This document shows positions 1 through 56,701 of a stretch of 64,000 nt of DNA, one piece after another. Below the pieces are notes generated by a model. The model saw only the letters and a list, made by a program, of their open reading frames with translations, was not told the origin of the DNA and did not search any database. Made by a program: the position numbers and the translations under genes. Where the stretch lies: NCBI GenBank assembly GCA_021648085.1, contig JAKITS010000001.1, forward strand, positions 618,759 through 682,758. The letters are read 5' to 3'. Every line of letters starts with the position of its first letter. The stretch's first letter is position 1. The stretch is from Candidatus Magasanikiibacteriota bacterium (lineage in GTDB: Bacteria; Patescibacteriota; Patescibacteriia; Magasanikbacterales; UBA922).

Positions 1-437
<437 letters not shown>

Positions 438-639
438 ATAAAAGAGATATTAAAAACCGAAGTTTTTACCCTCTCTATAAAAGTTATTTCCTAGAGTTTC
501 TTTATTTTTTGAATAGACATTTTCCCGCTTTAGATAAACTAAAGCGATAGAAGTCTTTGTCACTTTCTTATTGTGAATTGTTTGGTTAATTACATTGTAA
601 TGTTCGACGCATTTTTTCCGTTATCTAAATGCAGTTGCA

Positions 640-6425: not shown

Positions 6426-6695
6426 TAGAGCCTCCTATGTTTATGAAATGAGCGCTATGGCACGAAAAGAACTCAAAACTATTTTTTTAAAACAGTTTTC
6501 AATTCTCTTCAAAATAAATACTCCGCTTTTTACGGAGTATTTATTTTATTTTGTTTTATTTGTGATCTCCGCCACAATTACCACCACAGCAATCACCGTC
6601 TTTTTCATCGTCGCAACCACTGCAAAACATTACTCCATTCATATTTTTTGAATTTATAAAAATTAGTTTACTATAAAATTCTATTTTTGTCAATA

Positions 6696-19993: not shown

Positions 19994-20066
19994 GCGCCTA
20001 TAGCTCAGTTGGTAGAGCAGTTGCCTCTTAAGCAAACGGTCGCAGGTTCGAATCCTGCTGGGCGCA
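19994..20066 (+). tRNA. tRNA-Lys (anticodon CUU)
   Basis: Manual cloverleaf: acceptor GCGCCTA/TGGGCGC, D-arm GCTC-AGTTGGTA-GAGC, anticodon loop CTCTTAA, T-arm GCAGG-TTCGAAT-CCTGC. Nearly collinear with E. coli tRNA-Lys. CCA is not encoded. Confidence 0.85.
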
Positions 20067-21750: not shown

Positions 21751-21850
21751 TTTTGTAGTTTTTTCTATGTTTTAACTTGACTTTTGTACTAAAATATGGT
21801 ATTTTATATTACTGTTCATTTTACATTTCTAACCCAACAAGGAGAAAATC

Positions 21851-22537
21851 ATGAACTCTCTTATCGAGAGAATAATGGGAAAATTGGATAAAAAAAATGA
21901 AACTTTGGGAGAAAACATCCCAATGATGATGGTTGTAATCCGGGTTTCAAACCCGGAATGTATTCCAAAATGTATTCTGGAATCAACAAAACAACCAAAA
22001 AAAGAAAAAATATCCAAAGGTGTGGAGTTTATATCTCCACAAAAAAATGGCGAGGCTCAGGTTGGAGCACATTTGCTTCACCAAGATATCAATGCTTCTG
22101 GCTATAAAATAGTCAGAGCATGTTGGGAGCAAAAATTAAACGAACATGATAAACTATACTATTTAGTTCGTTTCGAATTTGTTAGAAACGAACTTTTAAG
22201 AGAAAAAATGGAGGAGTTAGAAGAAGTAATAAAAGCTCTAGAAACAATGCTAAATTCTGCATTGTGGAAAGTGAGAGTTTTCAGAAATCCATATTTCAAA
22301 AATGGGGAGATTCAAAGAGGTAATAGTACAATCTCTTTAAACCTCAATAGCAGAACTCCGCTGCACAAAGAAAACTGGATTTTTGACCCAGAATTACAAA
22401 AAATGGTTTTTAAAAAAATAAAACCAACTATGCGATGGGAAAAAAATAAAAAGGGTGAAAAAATAAAAAAAATTCCACTAACCGCAAAAGAGCGCTTGGT
22501 GATTAGGAACAACGAAATTCAAGTTGTTCCAATCTAA
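21851..22537 (+). CDS. Hypothetical protein (228 aa)
   Basis: RBS aaggag. Strong terminator downstream. No recognisable motif. Confidence 0.5.
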   Translation: MNSLIERIMGKLDKKNETLGENIPMMMVVIRVSNPECIPKCILESTKQPKKEKISKGVEFISPQKNGEAQVGAHLLHQDINASGYKIVRACWEQKLNEHDKLYYLVRFEFVRNELLREKMEELEEVIKALETMLNSALWKVRVFRNPYFKNGEIQRGNSTISLNLNSRTPLHKENWIFDPELQKMVFKKIKPTMRWEKNKKGEKIKKIPLTAKERLVIRNNEIQVVPI

Positions 22538-22543
22538 AAACCA

Positions 22544-22577
22544 AAGCCGACATAGAATTTCTATGTCGGCTTTTTTA
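22544..22577 (+). terminator. Rho-independent terminator
   Basis: Hairpin agccgacatag-aattt-ctatgtcggct followed by tttttt. Confidence 0.75.
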
Positions 22578-22891
22578 ATTCTTTTTTAAAATATTTTTGA
22601 TTTTAAATATACTTTCATAAGAACTCTATCGGTAAGTTTGGCTTCAGTTATTATTTAGGATAGTACATGTTATTATTTATATACCACTCCTTTTACTTTC
22701 CACCCTCAAATCCTATTTCTGTCATCCTCAGTTCTTATTTTTATCATCCTCAGCTTGACGGGGATCCATTCCATTCTTTCCTGTTTCGCGACTAAAGACT
22801 CCTGAATTCCTAGTCAAGCCAGGAATGACAAAAGAGTAAGGACTTTGCAGATTTTATAAACTTTCTAACCTTCCTGTCTGTTACCCTCCTA

Positions 22892-25009
22892 TTATTCAAA
22901 CAAAATTTCATCTCCAACAATAAACAACTGCTCGCCTGTCACATCATCCACTGCAGTTCCTCTTACTTTTGAAGTTAAGTTTGTCTGACTTGGGTTTTTT
23001 TGATTCAAAATTATATTAAACTGGAGTGCCAGAACATCTATACTTGTTGGCATTTCTGGAATAGTCCAAACAACTTTTTTGTTTTCTATGTCATATTGCA
23101 AATTTCCAGCAGGCACAGAAAGTGTGCTTGGATCCCACACAAAATCTCCATATAAATCAGCTTCAAATTTTAAATCCTTTAGATTGTGGAATGAGTTTGA
23201 TAGTAACCAAGTTATAGAATGAACATCTCGACCGTCAGAATCTTGACTTATTTCATCGGAAACCTGCAAATCTATGTCAGAATTAAGTTTAATAACAATT
23301 GGACTACTAGATAAAAACTCCCTTCCTTTTAATGTATCATATTGAATCTCAACAGTAGCTATTATTTCATATTTTGCAAAATCCGCAAGAGTTATCTCGC
23401 TATCTGTTTTAACAGGCAAGTGGTAATCTATTAAGACACTCTCCCCCAAAGAAATAGATCTCAATTCTGCAATATCCCCACCATCCCAAGTTATGTGTCC
23501 TCGTCTAATATCCACACTTCTTTGTTCCCCAAAAACATCTCCGCTATTTGGATCGTCTAATTTTATCCAATTTAATACACTCCTTTTATTTACAGAAGGT
23601 GCGTCAAAAATCATCCTTACTCGAACATTTGATATTATACTCTCTCCAGCATTTGAAACTGTAATAGTCCCATTCAACACATCTCCAGGTATCGCTGTGC
23701 TATTTTTTAACGAACCGTTTATAGCAAGCTGTGCGGAAATGCTCTTCTCCAAAATTGTAGGACTATAGCTAGATGTTGCAAAAATATAACCATCTCCAAG
23801 ATTTTCTGAATCTTTCCAACCTATCAAACTCGCCATTATAGAACTATCGTCATAATCTCCGAGATTAAAGATACCTTTTATGTCTACTATTTTTTCACCT
23901 TCTAAAATAGGAATTGACCATACAAAATTTTCAAACTCATCACTTTCTGGGATACTCTCTACTTTTGAGAATCCAGCAAAAGGCGTTAATACTAATGCTA
24001 AATTTTCAATACTTTTTTCGCTTGTATTTTTTAGCAAAACTTTAAACTCTGTTTCCACACCAGCAACAACAGCATCGACACCTTCAAAAGACAGTTCAAA
24101 GACGGAGTCTGTTATTTCTGTACTAAGATTGGCAACCTGCTGAAAATCTGAACTAAAATTATCAGGAGTATAATTGAAAAATATCCTAAAAGACTGTTTC
24201 TTGTTTATATCCCCATAAAGTTTTCCAGATATATCAATATAAGTTCCATCTTGTCCTGCAACCTCTCCTATAATCCACTTATCATTTGTTTCATTTGACG
24301 GCTCAATACTACTCTCAACAAACACAAAACCTTCTGGATAACGAATTTCTAATTCTACATTTTTTAATACACTATTTTGTAAATTTCTATATCTAACCCT
24401 ATAGCTCACATCTTGTCCAGCTGTCACAGCTTCATCTCCAACTATTGTTAGTAGCACATCTTCTTCTGAAAACTTACTACTAGAACCAAGTACAAAAAAA
24501 CCAAGCCATGCCACAAGACCTAAAAATAGCAGTGAAGAAACTAAAACACTAAGAGCTTTTAGAAGTGGACCCATCTTCTTTTTTTTCTGAAATTTACTCA
24601 TATCTGGAATTGTGCCATCCTCGTTTTCATAAATCTCCAAAAGTGCTTTATCCACATCATCATCTTTTTTTTGATGCTTTTTCTTTTTCATAAGTTTTTT
24701 CATACCACCATGTTTTTTCTTTTTTAGTGGTTTCAATATTTTTTCCACAAAACCAAACATTCCAACATCTTCTTTTTCTTTATGTTTTTTTTTCTTTTTT
24801 TTATGTTTCTTAATCTTTTTTTCTTTTACACTTTTATCTTTGTCAAAACTCTCAAATTTATTATTATTTTTATGCTTTTTTTTCTTCTTTTTTTTATGTT
24901 TTTTCTTGTGTATATTTTTCCCATCTTCTTCCAATTCCAAATAAATATCCTTTTCTTCAGATTCGTCTTTTTTATGTTTTTTACTTTTTTTGTGTTCTTT
25001 TTTAGACAT
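22892..25009 (-). CDS. Large membrane-anchored surface protein. It has an N-terminal poly-Lys/His cytoplasmic tail, one TM helix and an ~530-aa extracytoplasmic beta-rich domain
   Basis: 705 aa. The first ~150 aa are about 45% K/H (HKKKHKKKKKKKHK). The hydrophobic helix LLKALSVLVSSLLFLGLVAWLGFFVLG follows. It lies 10 nt downstream of the 25020..27653 gene. Confidence 0.6.
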   Translation of the reverse strand: MSKKEHKKSKKHKKDESEEKDIYLELEEDGKNIHKKKHKKKKKKKHKNNNKFESFDKDKSVKEKKIKKHKKKKKKHKEKEDVGMFGFVEKILKPLKKKKHGGMKKLMKKKKHQKKDDDVDKALLEIYENEDGTIPDMSKFQKKKKMGPLLKALSVLVSSLLFLGLVAWLGFFVLGSSSKFSEEDVLLTIVGDEAVTAGQDVSYRVRYRNLQNSVLKNVELEIRYPEGFVFVESSIEPSNETNDKWIIGEVAGQDGTYIDISGKLYGDINKKQSFRIFFNYTPDNFSSDFQQVANLSTEITDSVFELSFEGVDAVVAGVETEFKVLLKNTSEKSIENLALVLTPFAGFSKVESIPESDEFENFVWSIPILEGEKIVDIKGIFNLGDYDDSSIMASLIGWKDSENLGDGYIFATSSYSPTILEKSISAQLAINGSLKNSTAIPGDVLNGTITVSNAGESIISNVRVRMIFDAPSVNKRSVLNWIKLDDPNSGDVFGEQRSVDIRRGHITWDGGDIAELRSISLGESVLIDYHLPVKTDSEITLADFAKYEIIATVEIQYDTLKGREFLSSSPIVIKLNSDIDLQVSDEISQDSDGRDVHSITWLLSNSFHNLKDLKFEADLYGDFVWDPSTLSVPAGNLQYDIENKKVVWTIPEMPTSIDVLALQFNIILNQKNPSQTNLTSKVRGTAVDDVTGEQLFIVGDEILFE

Positions 25010-50764: not shown

Positions 50765-50983
50765 TTAAATAACTAAACTAATTATTGCCAAGAGGAAGAA
50801 AAATATTGATAATACAATAGTAGCATTAAAAAGTAGTTTATCTACTCCACGCTTTGTAGTCTTGATAGAGCCTCCACCTCCTCCAAAGGCAGCACCCAAT
50901 CCTGAACTGCTTTTTTGCAATAGTATTACAACTATCAATAAAACCGACAGGATAATTTGTATAATTGAAATTGTGAAGTTCAT
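50765..50983 (-). CDS. secG: Preprotein translocase subunit SecG
   Basis: 72 aa, two TM helices separated by the Gly-rich GLGAAFGGGGGS loop typical of SecG. Confidence 0.75.
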   Translation of the reverse strand: MNFTISIIQIILSVLLIVVILLQKSSSGLGAAFGGGGGSIKTTKRGVDKLLFNATIVLSIFFFLLAIISLVI

Positions 50984-51131
50984 AACTTATGATACCAAAA
51001 TAATAAAGGCATATCTAGTAAATTTACAATATCCTTATTAGATATACTTAAATAGTATAGTATAGTTTGATAAATTAATCAAGTATTTCAATACAAATAA
51101 CAATAAAATAGTTAATAATTCAACTTATTGT

Positions 51132-51160
51132 TTGACAATTAAGCCAATGTGTTTTATTAT
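51132..51160 (+). promoter_or_regulatory. sigma70 promoter (TTGACA, 17-nt spacer, TATTAT)
   Basis: ttgaca at 51132..51137, a 17-nt spacer, and tattat at 51155..51160, upstream of the zinc-ribbon ORF. Confidence 0.55.
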
Positions 51161-51203
51161 TATATGTACGAATAAATGTACTTTTGAGAATAGGGAGTAT
51201 AAA

Positions 51204-51494
51204 ATGTCTAAACAGCTCTGTAGGCAATGCGAACAAAGACCTGCTGGTCTACGAAAGAAAAATAGAATTATCAGAAATAGAGGTTTTGATCTTTGTCAAG
51301 CTTGTGAAGACAGGAACAAAGCTAAAGACAAAGTGCACAAACCTAAATACTCAAAAAGAAAGCCCATTATTGAAACTCTGGACCCAAGTGATTTTGAAGC
51401 AGATAGGATAAGATTTTCAAATGGAATACTTCCAGTTGAAACATATAGGATAGAGTATTTAAATAGACGACGTGTTAAATATATTTATATTTAG
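51204..51494 (+). CDS. Small basic zinc-ribbon protein (CxxC...CxxC), hypothetical
   Basis: 96 aa from the ATG after RBS gggag. CRQC ... CQAC. Very basic. GC content is higher than the genome background. Confidence 0.5.
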   Translation: MSKQLCRQCEQRPAGLRKKNRIIRNRGFDLCQACEDRNKAKDKVHKPKYSKRKPIIETLDPSDFEADRIRFSNGILPVETYRIEYLNRRRVKYIYI

Positions 51495-51570
51495 AAAATC
51501 AAATCTATATAAATATATTCCACAAAACCATCTAAAATGAGGTGGTTTTTTTATTTTTACTCAAAAAAGC

Positions 51571-51599
51571 TTGACAAATGCACAAAAAAATGATAATAT
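51571..51599 (+). promoter_or_regulatory. Strong sigma70 promoter with extended -10 (TTGACA, 17-nt spacer, TGaTAATAT)
   Basis: ttgaca at 51571..51576 and taatat at 51594..51599, preceded by TGa. Drives the GC-rich gene through a ~150-nt leader. Confidence 0.6.
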
Positions 51600-51753
51600 C
51601 CTCTAATCATTACTTGAGTTATAAAAGGCAATTAATTAGTTAATTCTCTTTTAAAGCTCAGGTGAGTTTTATATAGTAATTGATTTGCTGGAAATCTTTT
51701 ATTATTTAGTGCCCTTTTAAAAAACCAGCAAAAATCTTTTAAGGAGATTTAAA

Positions 51754-52782
51754 ATGAGTGAGATTGAAACTTTGAAATCTTTTGACGAGGCTGTTAAATT
51801 TGTTGTCCAGCGTTGGCTGGACATTGGAGGGGTAAAAGTTTCGAACTGGGACTTCAAAACCCAGTTCGAGTGTAGTTCCAAAGGCTGTGACTTCACAGCC
51901 AGCGTCACACAAAAATTTTTTGGTGAAGGCCTAAAAAAAGGTCTTTACAAAATATGGATCGATGTACTTGAAAACAAGTATGTTTGTCAGTACCACGCGC
52001 ATCAGGCTCGCGTGGCAAAAAAAGAGGATATTTTGAGGGGAAACCCTGAAATGTCCGACAAAGAAGCTTGGGGATCAACAGGAGTGGTTGCCGTGCCACT
52101 CATAAAGGTCTTCAAGGCCTTTCAAATGGCCGCAGATGGGGACTTCGAGCAGTCCGTAAAGGACATGCTCGAAGAAGATGTGACTTGCATCCTCTCCGTG
52201 CTGGCTGGGGAGCCAAAAAATATCCCCAGAAAAGAGGGGGTATTCCTGAAACTCGAAAGTCTCGAGTTTCTAGCAGAGGAGTTTAGACTTGAACTTGAAA
52301 AAGTCAAGTCTGAACTCACAGATGAAGAGCTAGAAGAGCTCGACGAAGAAGATGACCTTAGCGAACTCGGAAAAGAGTTTGTAAGGTTGAACGAAATCGT
52401 CGGGCTTGCAGAAAAGCTCATGGAGATCCTGGAAAAACTGGGTGAGCCATATCGGTACATCCAAGCCGGTGCAAAAGAAGCGCTGGCGGGAATTCTAGAG
52501 ATCACCGAAAGGGGAGCATTTTGGGTGGGTAAAGAACGGCGACAGCTGTTTTACCATCCAAACCAAGCAGTCCGGTACTACCTTGAAGGTAGACGGATGC
52601 GGAAATCTCCGCAAAAGAAAAGTTTCGAAAAGACAACAGGGATTGACCTGTCGTCTTTCCGAGGTGGGGACAAACCACTCTCGGCATCCATCTTTGAACA
52701 CATCAAAGATGGATATAAAACAAAAGGTCGGCGCACAAGCCGACAAAAACGGATGGGAGGAAAGAAGAACACTCACCAATAA
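51754..52782 (+). CDS. Hypothetical protein encoded by a GC-rich (about 50% G+C) gene of probable foreign origin. Acidic coiled-coil middle, basic C-terminal tail
   Basis: 342 aa. Strong RBS aaggag 8 nt upstream. Composition is sharply different from its flanks. It contains a CSSKGC...CQYHAH Cys/His cluster, an EELEELDEEDD acidic stretch and an RRTSRQKRMGGKK tail. Confidence 0.65.
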   Translation: MSEIETLKSFDEAVKFVVQRWLDIGGVKVSNWDFKTQFECSSKGCDFTASVTQKFFGEGLKKGLYKIWIDVLENKYVCQYHAHQARVAKKEDILRGNPEMSDKEAWGSTGVVAVPLIKVFKAFQMAADGDFEQSVKDMLEEDVTCILSVLAGEPKNIPRKEGVFLKLESLEFLAEEFRLELEKVKSELTDEELEELDEEDDLSELGKEFVRLNEIVGLAEKLMEILEKLGEPYRYIQAGAKEALAGILEITERGAFWVGKERRQLFYHPNQAVRYYLEGRRMRKSPQKKSFEKTTGIDLSSFRGGDKPLSASIFEHIKDGYKTKGRRTSRQKRMGGKKNTHQ

Positions 52783-52790
52783 CAATCATA

Positions 52791-52868
52791 GATCACACCT
52801 AACGAAAGTGGTGTGATCCACAACCAAACCCCACGCTTAATATAAGTAGCGTGGGGTTTTTTCTTTTA
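52791..52868 (+). terminator. Tandem hairpins: gatcacacc-(10-nt loop)-ggtgtgatc with no T-tract, then a canonical terminator aaccccacgct-(10-nt loop)-agcgtggggtt plus T7
   Basis: The inverted repeats can be read directly. The second hairpin is GC-rich and followed by ttttttctttt. Confidence 0.75.
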
Positions 52869-53080
52869 ATTAGTTAAATTATTTGTTTATATGTTTTCCT
52901 TCTACCATCTTTAGCTTAATTAGGGATTTAGGGTTTATTTCACAGTTCTATTTTGTAGACCACAGATTCCAAGTCAAGCTGAGAATGACAAATTAGAAGT
53001 TTTTTGTCTTATGTTATTTGTATCATACCCAATTTTTTTCTTTCTTAACCTACTTATTTGTCAATCTACTCTTTTTACTC

Positions 53081-53110
53081 TTGACAAAAAGCATCTAAAA
53101 ATGCTACAAT
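53081..53110 (+). promoter_or_regulatory. sigma70 promoter with extended -10 (TTGACA, 18-nt spacer, TGcTACAAT) for rpmE
   Basis: ttgaca at 53081..53086 and tacaat at 53105..53110. Leader to the rpmE ATG is about 20 nt with no SD. Confidence 0.55.
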
Positions 53111-53135
53111 GTTGGCATTACTAAAAATAACTTTT

Positions 53136-53582
53136 ATGAAAAAAGATATTCACCCACAAACATATCCTGTAGTTTTTATTGACACTTCTTGCGGAGAAGA
53201 TTTTATAACAACATCAACAATGACTTCAGACAAAAAAAAAGATATAGATGGAGTAGAACACTTCATTATTAATGTTGAAATTTCATCTGCTTCCCACCCA
53301 TTTTATACTGGTAAACAAATCTTAGTAGACACAGCGCGCCGTGTAGAAAAGTTTGAAGAAAGAATGAAAAAATCTAAAGCTTTGAGCGCTACAAAAAAGA
53401 CTAAGAAAACAAAGAAAGAAGTTGTAGAGGAAGTTGCAAAAGAAGAAAAAACTGAAACTCCAGCAGAAAAGGTTATAGTTGAAGAAGAAAAAGTTGAAAA
53501 AACACCTGAAACAACAAAAAAGGTAGAAGCTGAAGAAAAAGAAGAGATAGAAACTAAAACAACAGAAACTGAAGGAAAATAG
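53136..53582 (+). CDS. rpmE: 50S ribosomal protein L31 (non-zinc type) with a ~75-aa Lys/Glu-rich C-terminal extension
   Basis: MKKDIHPQTYPV...HPFYTGKQ matches L31. The ORF track start at 53109 lies inside the promoter's -10 element, so the ATG at 53136 is used. A long KE-rich tail follows the L31 core. Confidence 0.85.
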   Translation: MKKDIHPQTYPVVFIDTSCGEDFITTSTMTSDKKKDIDGVEHFIINVEISSASHPFYTGKQILVDTARRVEKFEERMKKSKALSATKKTKKTKKEVVEEVAKEEKTETPAEKVIVEEEKVEKTPETTKKVEAEEKEEIETKTTETEGK

Positions 53583-55753: not shown

Positions 55754-56701
55754 ATGTCATCCACCACAAAATTATTTAGTAGAAAATTGAATGAATTATT
55801 AGAAATTTTAAATTCTTGCGAAAGCACAGAAGAAGCGGTACAAATAGTAGATAATTTTGATAATCGCCACCAACATCTCCGAATGATAAAACAAGAACAG
55901 TTTGATAGTTTTGATAAACAAGTTCAATCGGCAATTCTAAAAAAGATGGGACTGTGTTGGACTAGTTCTGTTGTATTGAGTGAATTATTAGAAATTTTAA
56001 ATTCTTGCGAAAGCACAGAAGAAGCGGTACAAATAGTAGATAATTTTGATGATTTATACCAATATCTCCGGATGATGAAACAAGAACAGTTTGATAGTTT
56101 TGATAGACAAGTTCAACTGGCAATTCTAAAAAAGATGAGAATTCGTTGGGCCAGTTTTGTGGAAATTGTTGTAGAAAATCCTGGAATAAAAAAACAAGAA
56201 CCAACTCACTTACTCAAATTAATTTATAGGTACTCAACAAAAGACTACTTAACAAAAGAGAGTAAGGTTTATATGGAAAAACCTTTCAAAACACAACTTC
56301 TATGGAATAGGCAATTATTTTTACTATTTTTGTGTGATTGTGCAGAAAGTATTTTGCACTATTTTGAAGAGAGATATCCCGATGATAATAGACCCAGAAA
56401 TACAATTCAAGTGGCTAGGCGTTATGCATTAGGAGAAGCTACCAAAAAAGAACTTTCGGATGCAAGAGAAGAGATAGAAAAAGCAAAAGAAAGAGCGCAC
56501 TGGTACCTTGCAAACTACGCCGCACAAAGCGTATTATATACCGTTTGTCCATGGTGGAGATGTGTATATTACATTGGCTATGTATACAGTAGTACACACA
56601 AACGTATTTTGTTTTCTCCCGAAGATAGATTGTGGGAGTATCTTTCAGGAAAATTTACAGTTGAAGATGCCAGAAAATTATATGGAAGTAAAACTTCCTA
56701 A
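55754..56701 (+). CDS. Hypothetical protein containing two tandem 63-aa repeats (start at the ATG after RBS aaaaggagggg)
   Basis: 315 aa. LLEILNSCESTEEAVQIVDNFD...QEQFDSFD.QVQ.AILKKM occurs twice in succession. Cys/Trp-rich C-terminal part (CPWWRC). Confidence 0.6.
   Translation: MSSTTKLFSRKLNELLEILNSCESTEEAVQIVDNFDNRHQHLRMIKQEQFDSFDKQVQSAILKKMGLCWTSSVVLSELLEILNSCESTEEAVQIVDNFDDLYQYLRMMKQEQFDSFDRQVQLAILKKMRIRWASFVEIVVENPGIKKQEPTHLLKLIYRYSTKDYLTKESKVYMEKPFKTQLLWNRQLFLLFLCDCAESILHYFEERYPDDNRPRNTIQVARRYALGEATKKELSDAREEIEKAKERAHWYLANYAAQSVLYTVCPWWRCVYYIGYVYSSTHKRILFSPEDRLWEYLSGKFTVEDARKLYGSKTS
55790..56167 (+). repeat. Intragenic direct tandem duplication, 2 x 189 bp at about 90% identity
   Basis: gaattattagaaattttaaattcttgcgaaagcacagaagaagcggtacaaatagtagataattttgat occurs at 55793 and again at 55982. 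Confidence 0.85.

Follow-up and report, generated by a model that had tools for sequence, protein, structure and literature searches.

Why does one short stretch of an AT-rich CPR chromosome rise far above the base composition of everything around it? The locus lies between secG and rpmE in a genome of Candidatus Magasanikbacteria, and we analyzed it within the surrounding 64 kb of DNA, hereafter called the window. The first-pass annotation had interpreted the stretch as a GC-rich island with two genes that was probably acquired horizontally. Here we describe the extent of the anomaly, its conservation in related genomes and the predicted folding of the transcript, and weigh the explanations for it.

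Composition and layout of the locus

The mean G+C content of the window is 0.32, with a standard deviation of 0.034 in 1-kb intervals. The sharp rise that had been reported was confirmed. The G+C content is 0.505-0.515 in 200-nt intervals between 52000 and 52600, and the best 100-nt interval, at 52111, reaches 0.55. The 1-kb intervals covering this patch are the highest-GC non-rRNA DNA within the 64 kb. The patch corresponds to a single protein-coding gene, the ORF at 51754..52782, which we designate the larger gene. It has 46.4% GC and a GC3 of 0.48, whereas GC3 is 0.14-0.30 in all 39 other long ORFs of the window. The compositional island consists of its 342-aa CDS alone (about 51790-52800), which shows the codon-position GC periodicity typical of coding sequence. 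The proposed island beginning at about 51200 and including two genes was not observed. The gene upstream, hereafter the small gene, has 33.7% GC and a GC3 of 0.23, the intergenic leader has 24% GC, and these parts, like the UTRs, resemble the host in composition.

Both ORFs are present as described (51204..51494 and 51754..52782), and the anatomy given for the locus also holds, with separate sigma70-like promoters, a structured leader, a strong Shine-Dalgarno (SD) sequence and tandem 3′ hairpins (Table 1). Because an intrinsic terminator (51524-51549) is located between the two genes, they form separate transcription units. The annotated neighbors are housekeeping genes. RNase J is encoded three genes from the larger gene, and an Imm5-like immunity-type protein is encoded three genes downstream. 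A replication origin at this position was considered and rejected, as the local change of sign in the GC skew tracks gene orientation and flips back at ~56.7 kb.

Table 1. Positions of the features of the two-gene locus in the window.
Feature	Position	Strand	Basis and remarks
Promoter of the small zinc-ribbon gene, TTGACA-17-TATTAT	51132..51160	+	Consensus scan, 11/12 matches
Small basic zinc-ribbon protein	51204..51494	+	ORF; 96 aa, pI 10.0, host-like composition
Intrinsic terminator of the small gene, 10-bp stem and T-run	51524..51559	+	Terminator scan; inverted repeat (51524-51549)
Promoter of the larger gene, TTGACA-17-TAATAT, TG extended -10	51571..51599	+	Scan, 10/12; kept in L001 and L003
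Highly conserved 5′ leader, about 130-147 nt	51607..51753	+	Alignments, consensus fold
24-bp AU-rich leader hairpin	51610-51665	+	Start ~3 nt from the predicted transcription start (-10 box 51594-51599)
Leader stem TGCTGG / CCAGCA	51686-91 / 51725-30	+	Inverted repeat
SD of the larger gene, AAGGAG	51741-46	+	SD-ATG conserved in homologs
Larger gene, 342-aa ORFan protein	51754..52782	+	ORF, composition, homolog alignments
~30 back-to-back local RNA hairpins	51804..52778	+	Fold; A-rich loops on stems of 4-17 bp, dG as low as -21 kcal/mol
Conserved 3′-UTR hairpin 1, GATCACACC...GGTGTGATC	52791..52818	+	Inverted repeat; same position in all four lineages, compensatory changes
Intrinsic terminator of the larger gene, 12-bp GC-rich stem AAACCCCACGCT...AGCGTGGGGTTT and T-run	52826..52870	+	Inverted repeat; alignments

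Conservation in related CPR bacteria

Word-indexed, exhaustive HMMER and profile searches yielded four distinct proteins of the larger-gene family in total, and a metagenome scan added one locus. Besides the window copy, there are three distinct homologs (L001, L002 and L003) in 5.8 billion clusters / 1.84 billion representatives. All statistics below rest on these four members, which are all metagenomic and comprise one close pair (L001/L003) and three deep lineages. The first-pass annotation had named the presence of the pair at the same locus in all relatives, with similar composition, as evidence that would count against acquisition, and we found the pair after secG in both L001 and L003, the two relatives with genomic context. 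The order secG, small gene, larger gene and rpmE is the same in L001, and in L003 it is the same up to the contig end, which comes before rpmE; L002 is without genomic context. The flanking proteins of the relatives are 79-88% identical to those of the window, and 79-96% when the relatives are also compared with each other. Homologs are confined to the same lineage. The GTDB representative genomes gave no match by protein profile or leader motif, and exact look-ups of the SecG and L31 sequences of the window returned no further contigs. Homologs of the small protein (29-33% identity) were found only in the same loci as the larger gene. Within Candidatus Magasanikbacteria, the two genes are a chromosomally resident module that is restricted to one subgroup and located between secG and rpmE.

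The small protein has a C6-x2-C9...C31-x2-C34 motif and an invariant G-F-D motif, and its pI is 8.3-10.0 across the homologs. The CxxC...CxxC arrangement recognized earlier is thus present in the window copy and conserved in the family. In the N-terminal domain of the larger protein, C40, C45, C78, H81, K-E-A-W (103-106) and C145 are invariant, and the alignment of the four sequences contains about 40 invariant columns, including C40, C45, C78 and H81. Of the features previously assigned to this protein, the Cys/His cluster and the Lys/Arg-rich C-terminal tail are conserved in the homologs, whereas the acidic coiled-coil center is an insertion in the window copy only and not a feature of the family. 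Neither protein carries a recognizable motif, in agreement with the first-pass annotation. Pfam, PHROGs, PADLOC and NCBIfam gave nothing above threshold for both proteins (sub-threshold generic zinc-finger noise only), a profile search of PDB sequences gave no match, and a structure search with predicted models, which were of low confidence, gave no fold match. The ORF of the larger gene is open in 4/4 sequences, and only 0-13 of 3000 shuffles of each keep it open. Between L001 and L003, its dN/dS is 0.245, and all indels in the gene are in-frame (6, 6, 3 and 3 nt). On these sequence criteria, the larger gene is a real protein-coding gene under purifying selection.

The non-coding parts of the larger transcription unit are much better conserved than the coding parts. 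The alignment of the promoter holds the conserved block CTTGACAAA. The leader is 87-90% identical at the nucleotide level between the window and L001/L003, and 83-98% between L001 and L003. In the alignments of the window with L001/L003, the CDSs on both sides of this nearly frozen leader are near-random. The leader (fold z = -2.9) also holds conserved single-stranded blocks, and the TGCTGG/CCAGCA stem that had been noticed in it is present (51684-51691 / 51725-51732). In the consensus fold, the leader hairpin contains four conserved G.U pairs, which point to a structure of the + strand RNA and not to a DNA palindrome. A covariance model of the leader matches only upstream of copies of the larger gene, and the idea of a regulon motif was rejected for this reason. 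The two hairpins described past the stop codon are also present (52791-52818 and 52826-52859) and positionally conserved, with compensatory pairs at 3/18. The terminator sequence is kept family-wide, loop included.

Both ORFan proteins evolve rapidly, with dN values about 7-40 times those of the flanking genes. The dN of the small gene is 0.74-0.91 in all pairwise comparisons, including that of L001 with L003, in which the secG genes are 96% identical. Its cassette is 25-55% identical between these two, compared with 93-100% for the adjacent secG and intergenic DNA, and its promoter falls in a segment that is hypervariable between them. In the larger gene, the window and L001 differ by a dN of 0.87, nearly the host dS of 0.9, and the dS between L001 and L003 is twice that of secG. 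The synonymous sites of the window and L001 are saturated. The GC3 of the homologous larger genes is 0.60-0.66 (0.66 in L001, where that of the neighbors is 0.14-0.26, and 0.60 in L002). Because GC3 remains above the host level despite saturated synonymous divergence, the composition appears to be actively maintained.

Hairpins along the larger mRNA

In the predicted fold, the back-to-back hairpins fill the CDS of the larger gene except for about the first 50 nt. The first ~45 nt have a lower GC content than the rest, and such a low-GC, hairpin-poor start agrees with translation initiation. The minimum free energy of the CDS is -430.6 kcal/mol, corresponding to fold z-scores of -18.3 against dinucleotide shuffles, -12.5 against synonymous-codon shuffles and -13.3 against shuffles of codon order. 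Ten host control genes gave fold z-scores of -1.4 to +1.6. The MFED is 51% for the window copy and 29%, 37% and 15% for the other three members, compared with -3 to +7% for host genes, and the fold z-scores of the three homologs, against synonymous shuffles, are -11.8, -19.1 and -6.3. The small gene has no strong structure in the window copy, and its L001 and L003 copies show a mild excess (z about -4). In the window copy, the predicted fold of the sense strand exceeds that of the antisense strand in stability by 76 kcal/mol. Sense and antisense are of similar stability in L001 and L002, and specificity for the sense strand is therefore clear only in the window and L003.

The substitution pattern follows the predicted stems. 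Substituted columns make up 15% of paired and 23% of unpaired positions, and 44 broken pairs were observed where 62.5 ± 5.6 are expected (P about 0.0005). Among stem mismatches, G.T is more frequent than A.C (22 vs 9, P 0.03). Synonymous third-position changes occur at 19-20% of stem and 29-30% of loop sites, which is not significant alone (P 0.08-0.14). Double compensatory substitutions are not enriched in the stems of the CDS (6 observed, 4.8 expected). In the window, GC3 is 0.60 at paired and 0.30 at unpaired third positions. Unpaired third positions have a GC content of 0.30-0.57, compared with about 0.17 in the host, and hairpin selection therefore leaves part of the GC excess unexplained.

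The individual pairings are not preserved over long distances. L001 and L003, which have 82% nucleotide identity, have 138 of about 310 pairs in common, whereas the deep lineages have none above chance: the window has 0-2 CDS pairs in common with L001, L002 or L003, and ~2 are expected by chance. Hairpin centers co-locate weakly across the deep lineages, at or near chance. We therefore rejected one specific conserved fold and prefer conservation at the level of the trait. The hairpins have no motif in common; all are unique in sequence, and no 7-mer occurs in at least 3 of them. No significant copies of the hairpins were found elsewhere in the 64 kb of this 984-kb genome.

The hairpin trait is kept at the same chromosomal position in related CPR bacteria, which suggests a property maintained at the RNA level and not a recent import of DNA. 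The explanation we favor, to which we give about an even chance, is vertical inheritance of the module combined with selection on its mRNA to be structured throughout. The larger gene encodes a fast-evolving protein with a predicted zinc-binding N-terminal domain and a basic tail, and its mRNA would be under separate nucleotide-level selection for dense folding. In this transcript, ~30 GC-rich stem-loops are predicted to run end to end, with the near-invariant 5′ hairpin leader and the two 3′ hairpins as caps. The GC and GC3 excess may be largely a means or by-product of this structure, because stable stems need G-C pairs in a genome of 32% GC. What is conserved is the extent of folding and the excess of GC, while individual hairpins turn over. 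We infer that selection, as opposed to mutation, is the cause of the excess structure. A capped and folded transcript may resist single-strand-specific and 5′-end-dependent RNases, and owing to such resistance it would persist for long and be translated slowly. The frozen leader may be bound by a regulator, for which either of the two basic zinc proteins is a candidate.

Two known systems resemble this arrangement. Bacterial mRNAs can be stabilized by 5′-terminal stem-loops, and the 5′ end is where RNase J begins its attack (reviewed in PMC3997798). Like the ompA, papA, and Bacillus subtilis aprE and ermC leaders and the REP/terminator 3′ stabilizers, the larger gene has a hairpin near its predicted 5′ end and stable 3′ hairpins, and the organism encodes RNase J, whose 5′-end-dependent attack such structures block (PMC3997798). 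However, the known stabilizers are confined to UTRs, whereas here the entire CDS is predicted to fold too. In structured RNA viruses, GORS consists of pervasive, variable and evolutionarily plastic pairings with an MFED of 6-12% (PMC7566573). The larger gene likewise has order-dependent stem-loops throughout a protein-coding RNA, its extent of folding is conserved and its pairings are plastic, as in GORS (PMC7566573), and the same logic of MFED and synonymous scrambling detects its structure. Unlike GORS, which is a property of viral genomes and is linked to persistence or the evasion of innate immunity, this is one chromosomal bacterial mRNA transcribed from DNA. The family MFED of 15-51% is 1.3-4 times larger than the viral values, and the gene adds a 2.5-3-fold elevation of GC3 over the genome and a frozen leader and terminator. 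Because the locus is chromosomal, has housekeeping surroundings and lacks viral relatives, we describe it as GORS-like and not as a member of GORS as defined. We found no described bacterial precedent for a hairpin-packed mRNA in the literature.

Competing explanations and significance

The foremost competitor, which we consider unlikely, is a hypervariable recombination locus in which the leader, terminator and flanks anchor allele exchange among related lineages, and the GC content and hairpins are by-products of mutational or repair bias. The bias could come from GC-biased gene conversion or from intrastrand template switching, the latter making and perfecting inverted repeats. Template switching has been shown to generate perfect stems and to preserve them (PMC8794818), and it could yield near-perfect local inverted repeats and multi-base changes. 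Allele exchange would suit the sharp borders between frozen non-coding DNA and near-randomized CDSs, including those of the small-gene cassette in L001/L003. The dN of the larger gene at the level of host dS, its doubled dS relative to secG, the raised GC3 at unpaired positions and the rapid turnover of hairpins also point in this direction. However, substitutions avoid stems and stem-breaking changes are depleted, and the tolerance of G.U over A.C is not predicted by a strand-symmetric DNA process. Gene conversion alone makes no order-dependent hairpins, and the z-scores were obtained against composition-matched shuffles. In addition, the equally hypervariable small gene lacks both a high GC content and strong structure in the window copy. 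Substitutions in the larger gene are clustered to the same degree as in a host SBP gene (observed/expected 1.66 vs 1.62), without an excess of double changes, and a template-switch footprint was rejected on the basis of this clustering. By itself, template switching also leaves the GC enrichment and the depletion of stem substitutions unexplained.

It is rather improbable that the hairpin array is itself the functional product, in a self-recognizing ribonucleoprotein with the array as a scaffold for the basic zinc protein(s), or as a decoy or sensor in phage/host-cell conflict. An arms race over the hairpin RNA would then explain the rapid evolution of both proteins (dN 7-40 times that of the neighbors). 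Both are predicted to bind zinc, and the basic small protein and the basic C-terminal tail of the larger one resemble nucleic-acid binders. The extreme structure (MFED up to 51%), the link of viral GORS to evasion of host sensing (PMC7566573) and the Imm5-like protein in the neighborhood are also consistent with a conflict function. On the other hand, the hairpins offer no common motif to a sequence-specific binder, the proteins match no defense model, and the locus is embedded among housekeeping genes. The boldest form of this idea, a cellular CPR mRNA with virus-like genome-scale ordered structure whose array is the RNA product of a leader-controlled, self-encoding RNA-protein conflict system, is similarly improbable. 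The likening of the pair to a toxin/antitoxin system was offered as speculation, and we do not favor it. As in type II toxin-antitoxin pairs, the gene for a small basic protein precedes that for a second one, and both proteins are fast-evolving and lineage-specific. In contrast to such pairs, each gene has its own promoter and a terminator lies between the two, the second protein has 342 aa, and neither protein matches toxin-antitoxin or defense profiles in Pfam, NCBIfam or PADLOC.

A large structured non-coding RNA with an incidental ORF is highly unlikely. The extreme folding energy and the presence of a dedicated promoter, conserved leader and terminator would be expected of such an RNA, and the GC-rich patches of AT-rich genomes are usually structured RNAs. 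Against this stand the dN/dS ratio, the in-frame indels, the conserved SD-ATG, the invariant Cys/His residues, the ORF kept in all four sequences and the coding-type GC periodicity, and the base pairs have no positional conservation across lineages. A comparison with Rfam, which took in OLE, GOLLD, ROOL, HEARO, riboswitches and leaders, gave nothing relevant at gathering thresholds for the whole window, and only noise at E ≤ 1 for 50900-53200.

We assign even less credence to a recent horizontal island, that is, a foreign GC-rich module inserted between secG and rpmE. The GC content and GC3 of the larger gene are strongly atypical and both proteins are ORFans, as is usual for genomic islands. 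Unlike such islands, the locus has conserved synteny, with the same pair at the same place and the same or a stronger GC excess in the relatives, and its GC3 persists through saturated synonymous divergence. Only one CDS deviates, between a host-like small gene, leader and UTRs. The locus also lacks the usual machinery: there are no integrase or other mobility genes among the annotated neighbors, no tRNA beside the module (the tRNAs of the window are at 19994, 20147 and 43207 only) and no att-like repeats at the borders, where only short AT-rich chance matches occur. Phage, plasmid and IMG/VR collections contain no relatives. Finally, foreign origin does not account for order-dependent hairpins.

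Rickettsia palindromic elements and yeast mitochondrial GC clusters are repeated families of related sequence in AT-rich genomes. An array of such mobile palindromes inserted in-frame, or a hairpin/cruciform site acting at the DNA level, is the least probable explanation: GC-rich hairpin segments do lie in-frame in the CDS of an AT-rich genome and both strands fold well in L001 and L002, but each hairpin is unique, belonging to no sequence family and not duplicated elsewhere in the 64 kb. Taken together, the hairpins constitute the entire gene and form part of a conserved reading frame that encodes a domain with invariant residues, and G.U pairs are frequent and asymmetric.

In AT-rich small genomes, compositional islands are routinely called horizontal transfer. 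Here, the GC excess appears to be a maintained trait of one vertically inherited gene and to be coupled to the extreme folding of its mRNA. If selection for structure can raise GC3 2.5-3-fold and push the evolution of the protein to a near-neutral rate, composition-based detection of transfer needs a caveat, and the larger gene would be a directly testable cellular counterpart to viral GORS. The locus also provides a new, highly conserved leader RNA of about 130-147 nt that is dedicated to one gene. Its two ORFan families of zinc proteins are specific to a CPR lineage whose members are not yet culturable alone, and both are candidates for RNA-binding or conflict functions.

Base composition and conservation of the locus

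The G+C content of the window is 32.0% (1-kb windows: mean 0.319, SD 0.034), and its highest non-rRNA 1-kb values all lie over 51500-52400. Per 200 nt, the G+C content is 0.25-0.29 at 51500-51700, rises to 0.43-0.515 at 51800-52700 and falls to 0.30 by 52900, with a 100-nt peak of 0.55. A bacterial 16S rRNA gene at the left edge of the window accounts for its other GC-rich stretch. The 342-aa ORF (the large gene) has 46.4% GC, with GC1/GC2/GC3 of 0.57/0.34/0.48; the 39 further ORFs of the window that reach 200 aa all have a GC3 of 0.135-0.303. The first-pass annotation had described a GC-rich island of two genes. The sharp rise in G+C is present, but the 96-aa zinc-ribbon ORF (the small gene) is host-like, with 33.7% GC and a GC3 of 0.23, and the spacer between the two genes has 24% GC. 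Because the rise is limited to the 342-aa ORF, the compositional anomaly is that of one gene, not two.

Features in the window and their coordinates
Feature	Coordinates	Strand	Description
16S rRNA gene, 5' portion	1-442	-	cut by the left edge of the window; Rfam 409 bits
Structured intergenic stretch	6426-6695	-	folding z = -6.5 vs shuffles
Tiny Cys-rich ORF	~6557-6643	-	MNGVMFCSGCDDEKDGDCCGGNCGGDHK
Locally structured stretch	21800-22600	both	GC-corrected folding residual z -2 to -3
ORF overlapping it	21851-22537	+	228 aa; GC3 0.30
Lys/His-rich protein gene	22892-25009	-	705 aa
Promoter-like site, small gene	51132-51160	+	11/12 matches
Small gene	51204-51494	+	96-aa zinc-ribbon protein
Intrinsic terminator between both genes	51524-51549	+	from terminator scan
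Promoter-like site, large gene	51571-51599	+	10/12 matches, extended -10 TG
Leader	51607-51753	+	24-bp AU-rich hairpin, single-stranded blocks, TGCTGG/CCAGCA stem
Leader hairpin	51610-51665	+	24 bp, AU-rich
12-nt repeat TTAATTAGTTAA	51632-51643; 52866-52877		leader hairpin apical loop; just past terminator T-run
Large gene	51754-52782	+	342 aa
Predicted stem-loops of the coding sequence	51804-52778	+	~30
Acidic coiled-coil insertion	52279-52400	+	aa ~180-215
rpmE	53133-53582	+	L31 with C-terminal extension
Imm-5-like protein gene	55754-56701	+	315 aa; Pfam E = 7e-11

Homologs of the large gene were found with gene context at two loci. On L001, a contig of 7.3 kb, the genes for PspC, RNase J, SBP_bac_5 and SecG share one strand, and a 94-aa zinc-ribbon gene, a 320-aa large homolog and L31 lie on the other; L003 carries secG, a zinc-ribbon gene of 105-109 aa and a 326-aa large homolog, and its contig stops short of rpmE. 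Both arrangements are exactly that of the window, and the flanking proteins are 88% (RNase J), 82% (SBP), 79-80% (SecG) and 69% (L31) identical to those of the window. The large gene of L001 has 55.8% GC and a GC3 of 0.66 (neighbors 0.14-0.26), and that of L002, a homologous locus without gene context, has 50% GC and a GC3 of 0.60 (flank 37% GC). The first-pass annotation had regarded the pair as probably horizontally acquired and had named its presence in all relatives, at the same locus and with similar composition, as one refuting observation. In both relatives with gene context this is what was found, the sampled relatives all being carriers of the pair: the pair, locus and GC anomaly recur in L001 and the arrangement in L003, so that transfer fails by its own test.

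Synonymous sites of the large gene are saturated between the window and L001 (host dS ~0.9), yet GC3 has not reached the host level of ~0.2 that passive amelioration predicts, which means that the composition is maintained and is not that of ameliorating foreign DNA. A genomic island is further rejected because no tRNA lies near the module (the small and large genes between secG and rpmE) and no direct repeats mark its borders. Its annotated neighbors are housekeeping genes, and no relatives were found in phage, plasmid and IMG/VR collections. We consider it likely that the large gene is a vertically maintained, hyper-structured coding gene rather than a transferred island. A gene whose protein has a putative immunity domain of Imm-5-like type lies three genes downstream of the module, surrounded by housekeeping genes.

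Coding status and evolutionary rates

The 342-aa protein is MCF6276875.1, a hypothetical protein from a Candidatus Magasanikbacteria MAG (984-kb contig; protein accessions MCF6276875.1 and MCF6276874.1). In a word-indexed search over 5.8 billion protein clusters it hit only itself. HMMER, run exhaustively on 1.84 billion representatives, contributed two homologs (E = 3e-14 and 2.5e-5), and one further lineage came from a profile search and a metagenome scan. The family comprises four distinct sequences of 320-342 aa, all metagenomic, with identities of 23-39% across deep splits and a single close pair (L001 and L003, 77.5%). Invariant positions include C40, C45, C78, H81, K-E-A-W (103-106) and C145, and all four proteins have a Lys/Arg-rich C-terminal tail. 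The acidic coiled-coil center noted in the first-pass annotation exists in the protein of the window, but it is an insertion solely in this allele, built of hairpins, and the other members lack it. Neither protein of the module matched Pfam, PHROGs, PADLOC, NCBIfam or PDB sequences. The AlphaFold2 models were poor (pLDDT of 45 and 53) because only four sequences are available, and fold searches were uninformative. The models place C40 and C45 on a β-hairpin and C78 and H81 where a helix begins; this is only a hint of a treble-clef-like zinc site.

The large gene is a real, very rare protein-coding gene. Its dN/dS between L001 and L003 is 0.245 (dN 0.13, dS 0.53), the four indels all have lengths divisible by three, conservation extends to the SD and ATG, and the opening ~45 nt are less GC-rich, with the first strong hairpin of the window copy starting at 51804. 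Among 3000 dinucleotide shuffles of each of the four sequences, a full-length open frame arose by chance in only 0-13. These observations together rule out a purely non-coding RNA.

Nucleotide identity along the locus
Region	Window vs L001	L001 vs L003
secG	73-85%	93-96%
secG-side intergenic region		94-100%
Small-gene cassette (promoter, CDS, terminator; ~51081-51523)	~40-50%	25-55%
Leader	87-90% at core	83-98%
Large CDS	22-53%	~82%
3' UTR	65-70%	68-86%
rpmE	80-93%	

The dN of the large gene is 0.87 between the window and L001, compared with 0.07-0.12 for its neighbors, and 0.13 between L001 and L003, compared with 0.019 for secG. For the small gene, dN is 0.74-0.91 throughout, L001 vs L003 included. 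By these contrasts, both proteins evolve some 7-40 times faster than the housekeeping genes next to them, and the non-coding leader is strongly constrained in sequence. The small-gene cassette differs sharply between L001 and L003 although the adjoining secG and intergenic DNA is 93-100% identical and the large gene 82%, which suggests replacement or extreme diversifying selection of the cassette, independent of the large gene. The L31 protein encoded by rpmE has a Lys/Glu-rich C-terminal extension of ~80 aa; at the nucleotide level it is ~90% identical to L001 within the L31 domain and ~55% identical within the extension.

Predicted folding of the coding sequence

Because a GC-rich patch in an AT-rich genome is usually a structured RNA, the 342-aa ORF was folded; all RNA structures described here are predictions. 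The sense strand has a minimum free energy of -430.6 kcal/mol over 1029 nt (antisense, -354.7). Dinucleotide shuffles averaged -291.7 kcal/mol (z = -18.3), synonymous-codon permutations that kept protein and codon usage averaged -302.8 kcal/mol (z = -12.5), and codon-order shuffles gave z = -13.3. Judged against these three shuffle types, the folding excess is a property of nucleotide order for which neither composition nor amino-acid sequence accounts. Ten control genes of the window gave z of -1.4 to +1.6. With base-pair spans of at most 70 nt, the coding sequence forms ~30 stem-loops in succession, with stems of 4-17 bp, energies down to -21 kcal/mol and A-rich loops, and two more hairpins follow the stop codon. 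The coding sequence is ~60% paired in strong local hairpins. The folding-energy excess over shuffled controls (MFED, an RNA-virus metric computed on 240-nt fragments with dinucleotide-preserving shuffles) is 51% for the large gene and -3 to +7% for host genes; viruses whose RNA structure is ordered at genome scale (GORS) have 6-12%, and those that lack structure have 0.7-1.6% (PMC7566573). The homologs gave z of -11.8 (L001), -19.1 (L003) and -6.3 (L002) against synonymous shuffles, with MFEDs of 29%, 37% and 15%, respectively. The small zinc-ribbon and L31 genes of the relatives (L001 4860-5144 and 6818-7216; L003 1406-1735) show a mild excess of folding (z -3.1 to -4.3 vs synonymous shuffles), which is not seen in the small gene and L31 of the window (z -1.2 and -0.4).

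When predicted pairs were projected onto the codon alignment, 138 of ~310 were common to L001 and L003, and the window had 0-2 in common with any other lineage (chance expectation, ~2). Hairpin centers co-locate weakly between the window and L001 (7 of 30 vs 3.0 ± 1.5 expected, P ~0.02); the other lineage pairs are not significant. The inherited trait is thus a GC-rich, fully folded state and not one particular fold, and the unshared pairings argue against a ribozyme- or riboswitch-like RNA.

Selection for sense-RNA structure is favored as the force that shapes the large gene, with a contribution of mutation or gene conversion to its GC and hairpins as the main rival. Between L001 and L003, 15% of paired and 23% of unpaired columns differ, and with substitutions permuted within codon-position classes, stem-breaking changes number 44 against 62.5 ± 5.6 expected (P ~0.0005), which goes against the rival. 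Synonymous third-position changes agree in direction (19-20% at stem sites, 29-30% at loop sites; P 0.08-0.14). Stems contain 22 G.T mismatches (G.U in sense RNA) and only 9 A.C mismatches (P 0.03), and the sense strand of the window's gene is 76 kcal/mol more stable than the antisense. Selection alone is argued against by L001 and L002, in which both strands fold about equally well, and by double compensatory changes, which are not enriched (6 vs 4.8 expected). GC3 at paired and unpaired sites is 0.60 and 0.30 in the window's large gene, 0.73 and 0.56 in L001, and 0.24-0.29 and 0.16-0.20 in host genes; the GC excess is thus concentrated in stems, but the unpaired level above that of the host also speaks against selection alone. 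Template-switch mutagenesis is expected to leave excess clustering of substitutions (PMC8794818), and none was found beyond that of the host SBP gene of the same genome pair (observed/expected 1.66 and 1.62).

The hairpins all differ, with no 7-mer common to three or more of them and no copies elsewhere within 64 kb, which rules out a mobile palindromic element array, and the absence of any Rfam match to the region even at E ≤ 1 rules out a known RNA family.

Other structured or unusual stretches lie elsewhere in the window. The Cys-rich ORF in the intergenic stretch on the minus strand is followed by two very strong hairpins, and the stretch, with sub-threshold Rfam matches only, could hold a gene for a small peptide of metal-binding or RiPP-like type, with a bidirectional terminator. 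The GC3 of the 228-aa ORF is among the highest outside the large gene. The 705-aa protein has an extremely Lys/His-rich N-terminal ~120 aa (KKHKKKKKK runs), followed by a probable transmembrane segment.

Transcription units and a possible role of the structure

The sigma70-type promoters, the TGCTGG/CCAGCA leader stem and the two post-stop hairpins reported in the first-pass annotation were all recovered. The intrinsic terminator, absent from that annotation, separates the small and large genes into two transcription units; with this terminator and a second promoter between the genes, and no family match, a type II toxin-antitoxin operon is rejected. The transcript of the large gene is predicted to start at ~51606-51608 and to end at ~52870. 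The leader hairpin begins ~3 nt past the predicted transcription start, and its four conserved G.U pairs identify it as a plus-strand RNA element. Conserved blocks predicted to be single-stranded accompany the TGCTGG/CCAGCA stem. A covariance model of the leader matched solely upstream of large-gene copies, and no copy of the motif came up in capped scans of genome collections (GTDB representative genomes and IMG/VR). Both 3' hairpins are conserved in position, with double compensatory changes at 3 of 18 pairs. An exact 12-nt repeat brackets the unit of the large gene; it is probably due to chance because L001 and L003 have no conserved copy.

The predictions show a gene with a dedicated promoter, a folded transcript 5' end and a doubly capped 3' end, kept over evolution in a vertically inherited locus. 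Stabilization of mRNAs by 5'-terminal stem-loops is established (review PMC3997798). The folded transcript would present enzymes of the RNase Y or RNase J type with few single-stranded entry sites and with a 5' end that is not free, and would thus be expected to be unusually long-lived, and its translation would be slow because ribosomes would have to unwind ~30 hairpins. The frozen leader is most simply read as a putative regulator binding site, for which both basic zinc proteins are obvious candidates. The fast protein evolution may partly come from RNA-level selection and hairpin turnover that drag amino-acid changes along, with diversifying selection or allele exchange as further possible causes. 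We regard this specific stability and translation mechanism as tentative and somewhat doubtful; for the hyper-structured, vertically kept gene and the mechanism taken together, our judgment is evenly balanced.

The closest analogue in how it works is viral GORS, but a chromosomal bacterial gene whose MFED is 1.3-4 times higher and whose GC is strongly shifted falls outside GORS as defined. The transcript resembles mRNAs stabilized by UTR hairpins, except that it is folded through the whole coding sequence too. Literature searches found no described bacterial precedent. What is new here is pervasive ordered RNA structure in a cellular mRNA, together with two ORFan protein families and a dedicated leader RNA.
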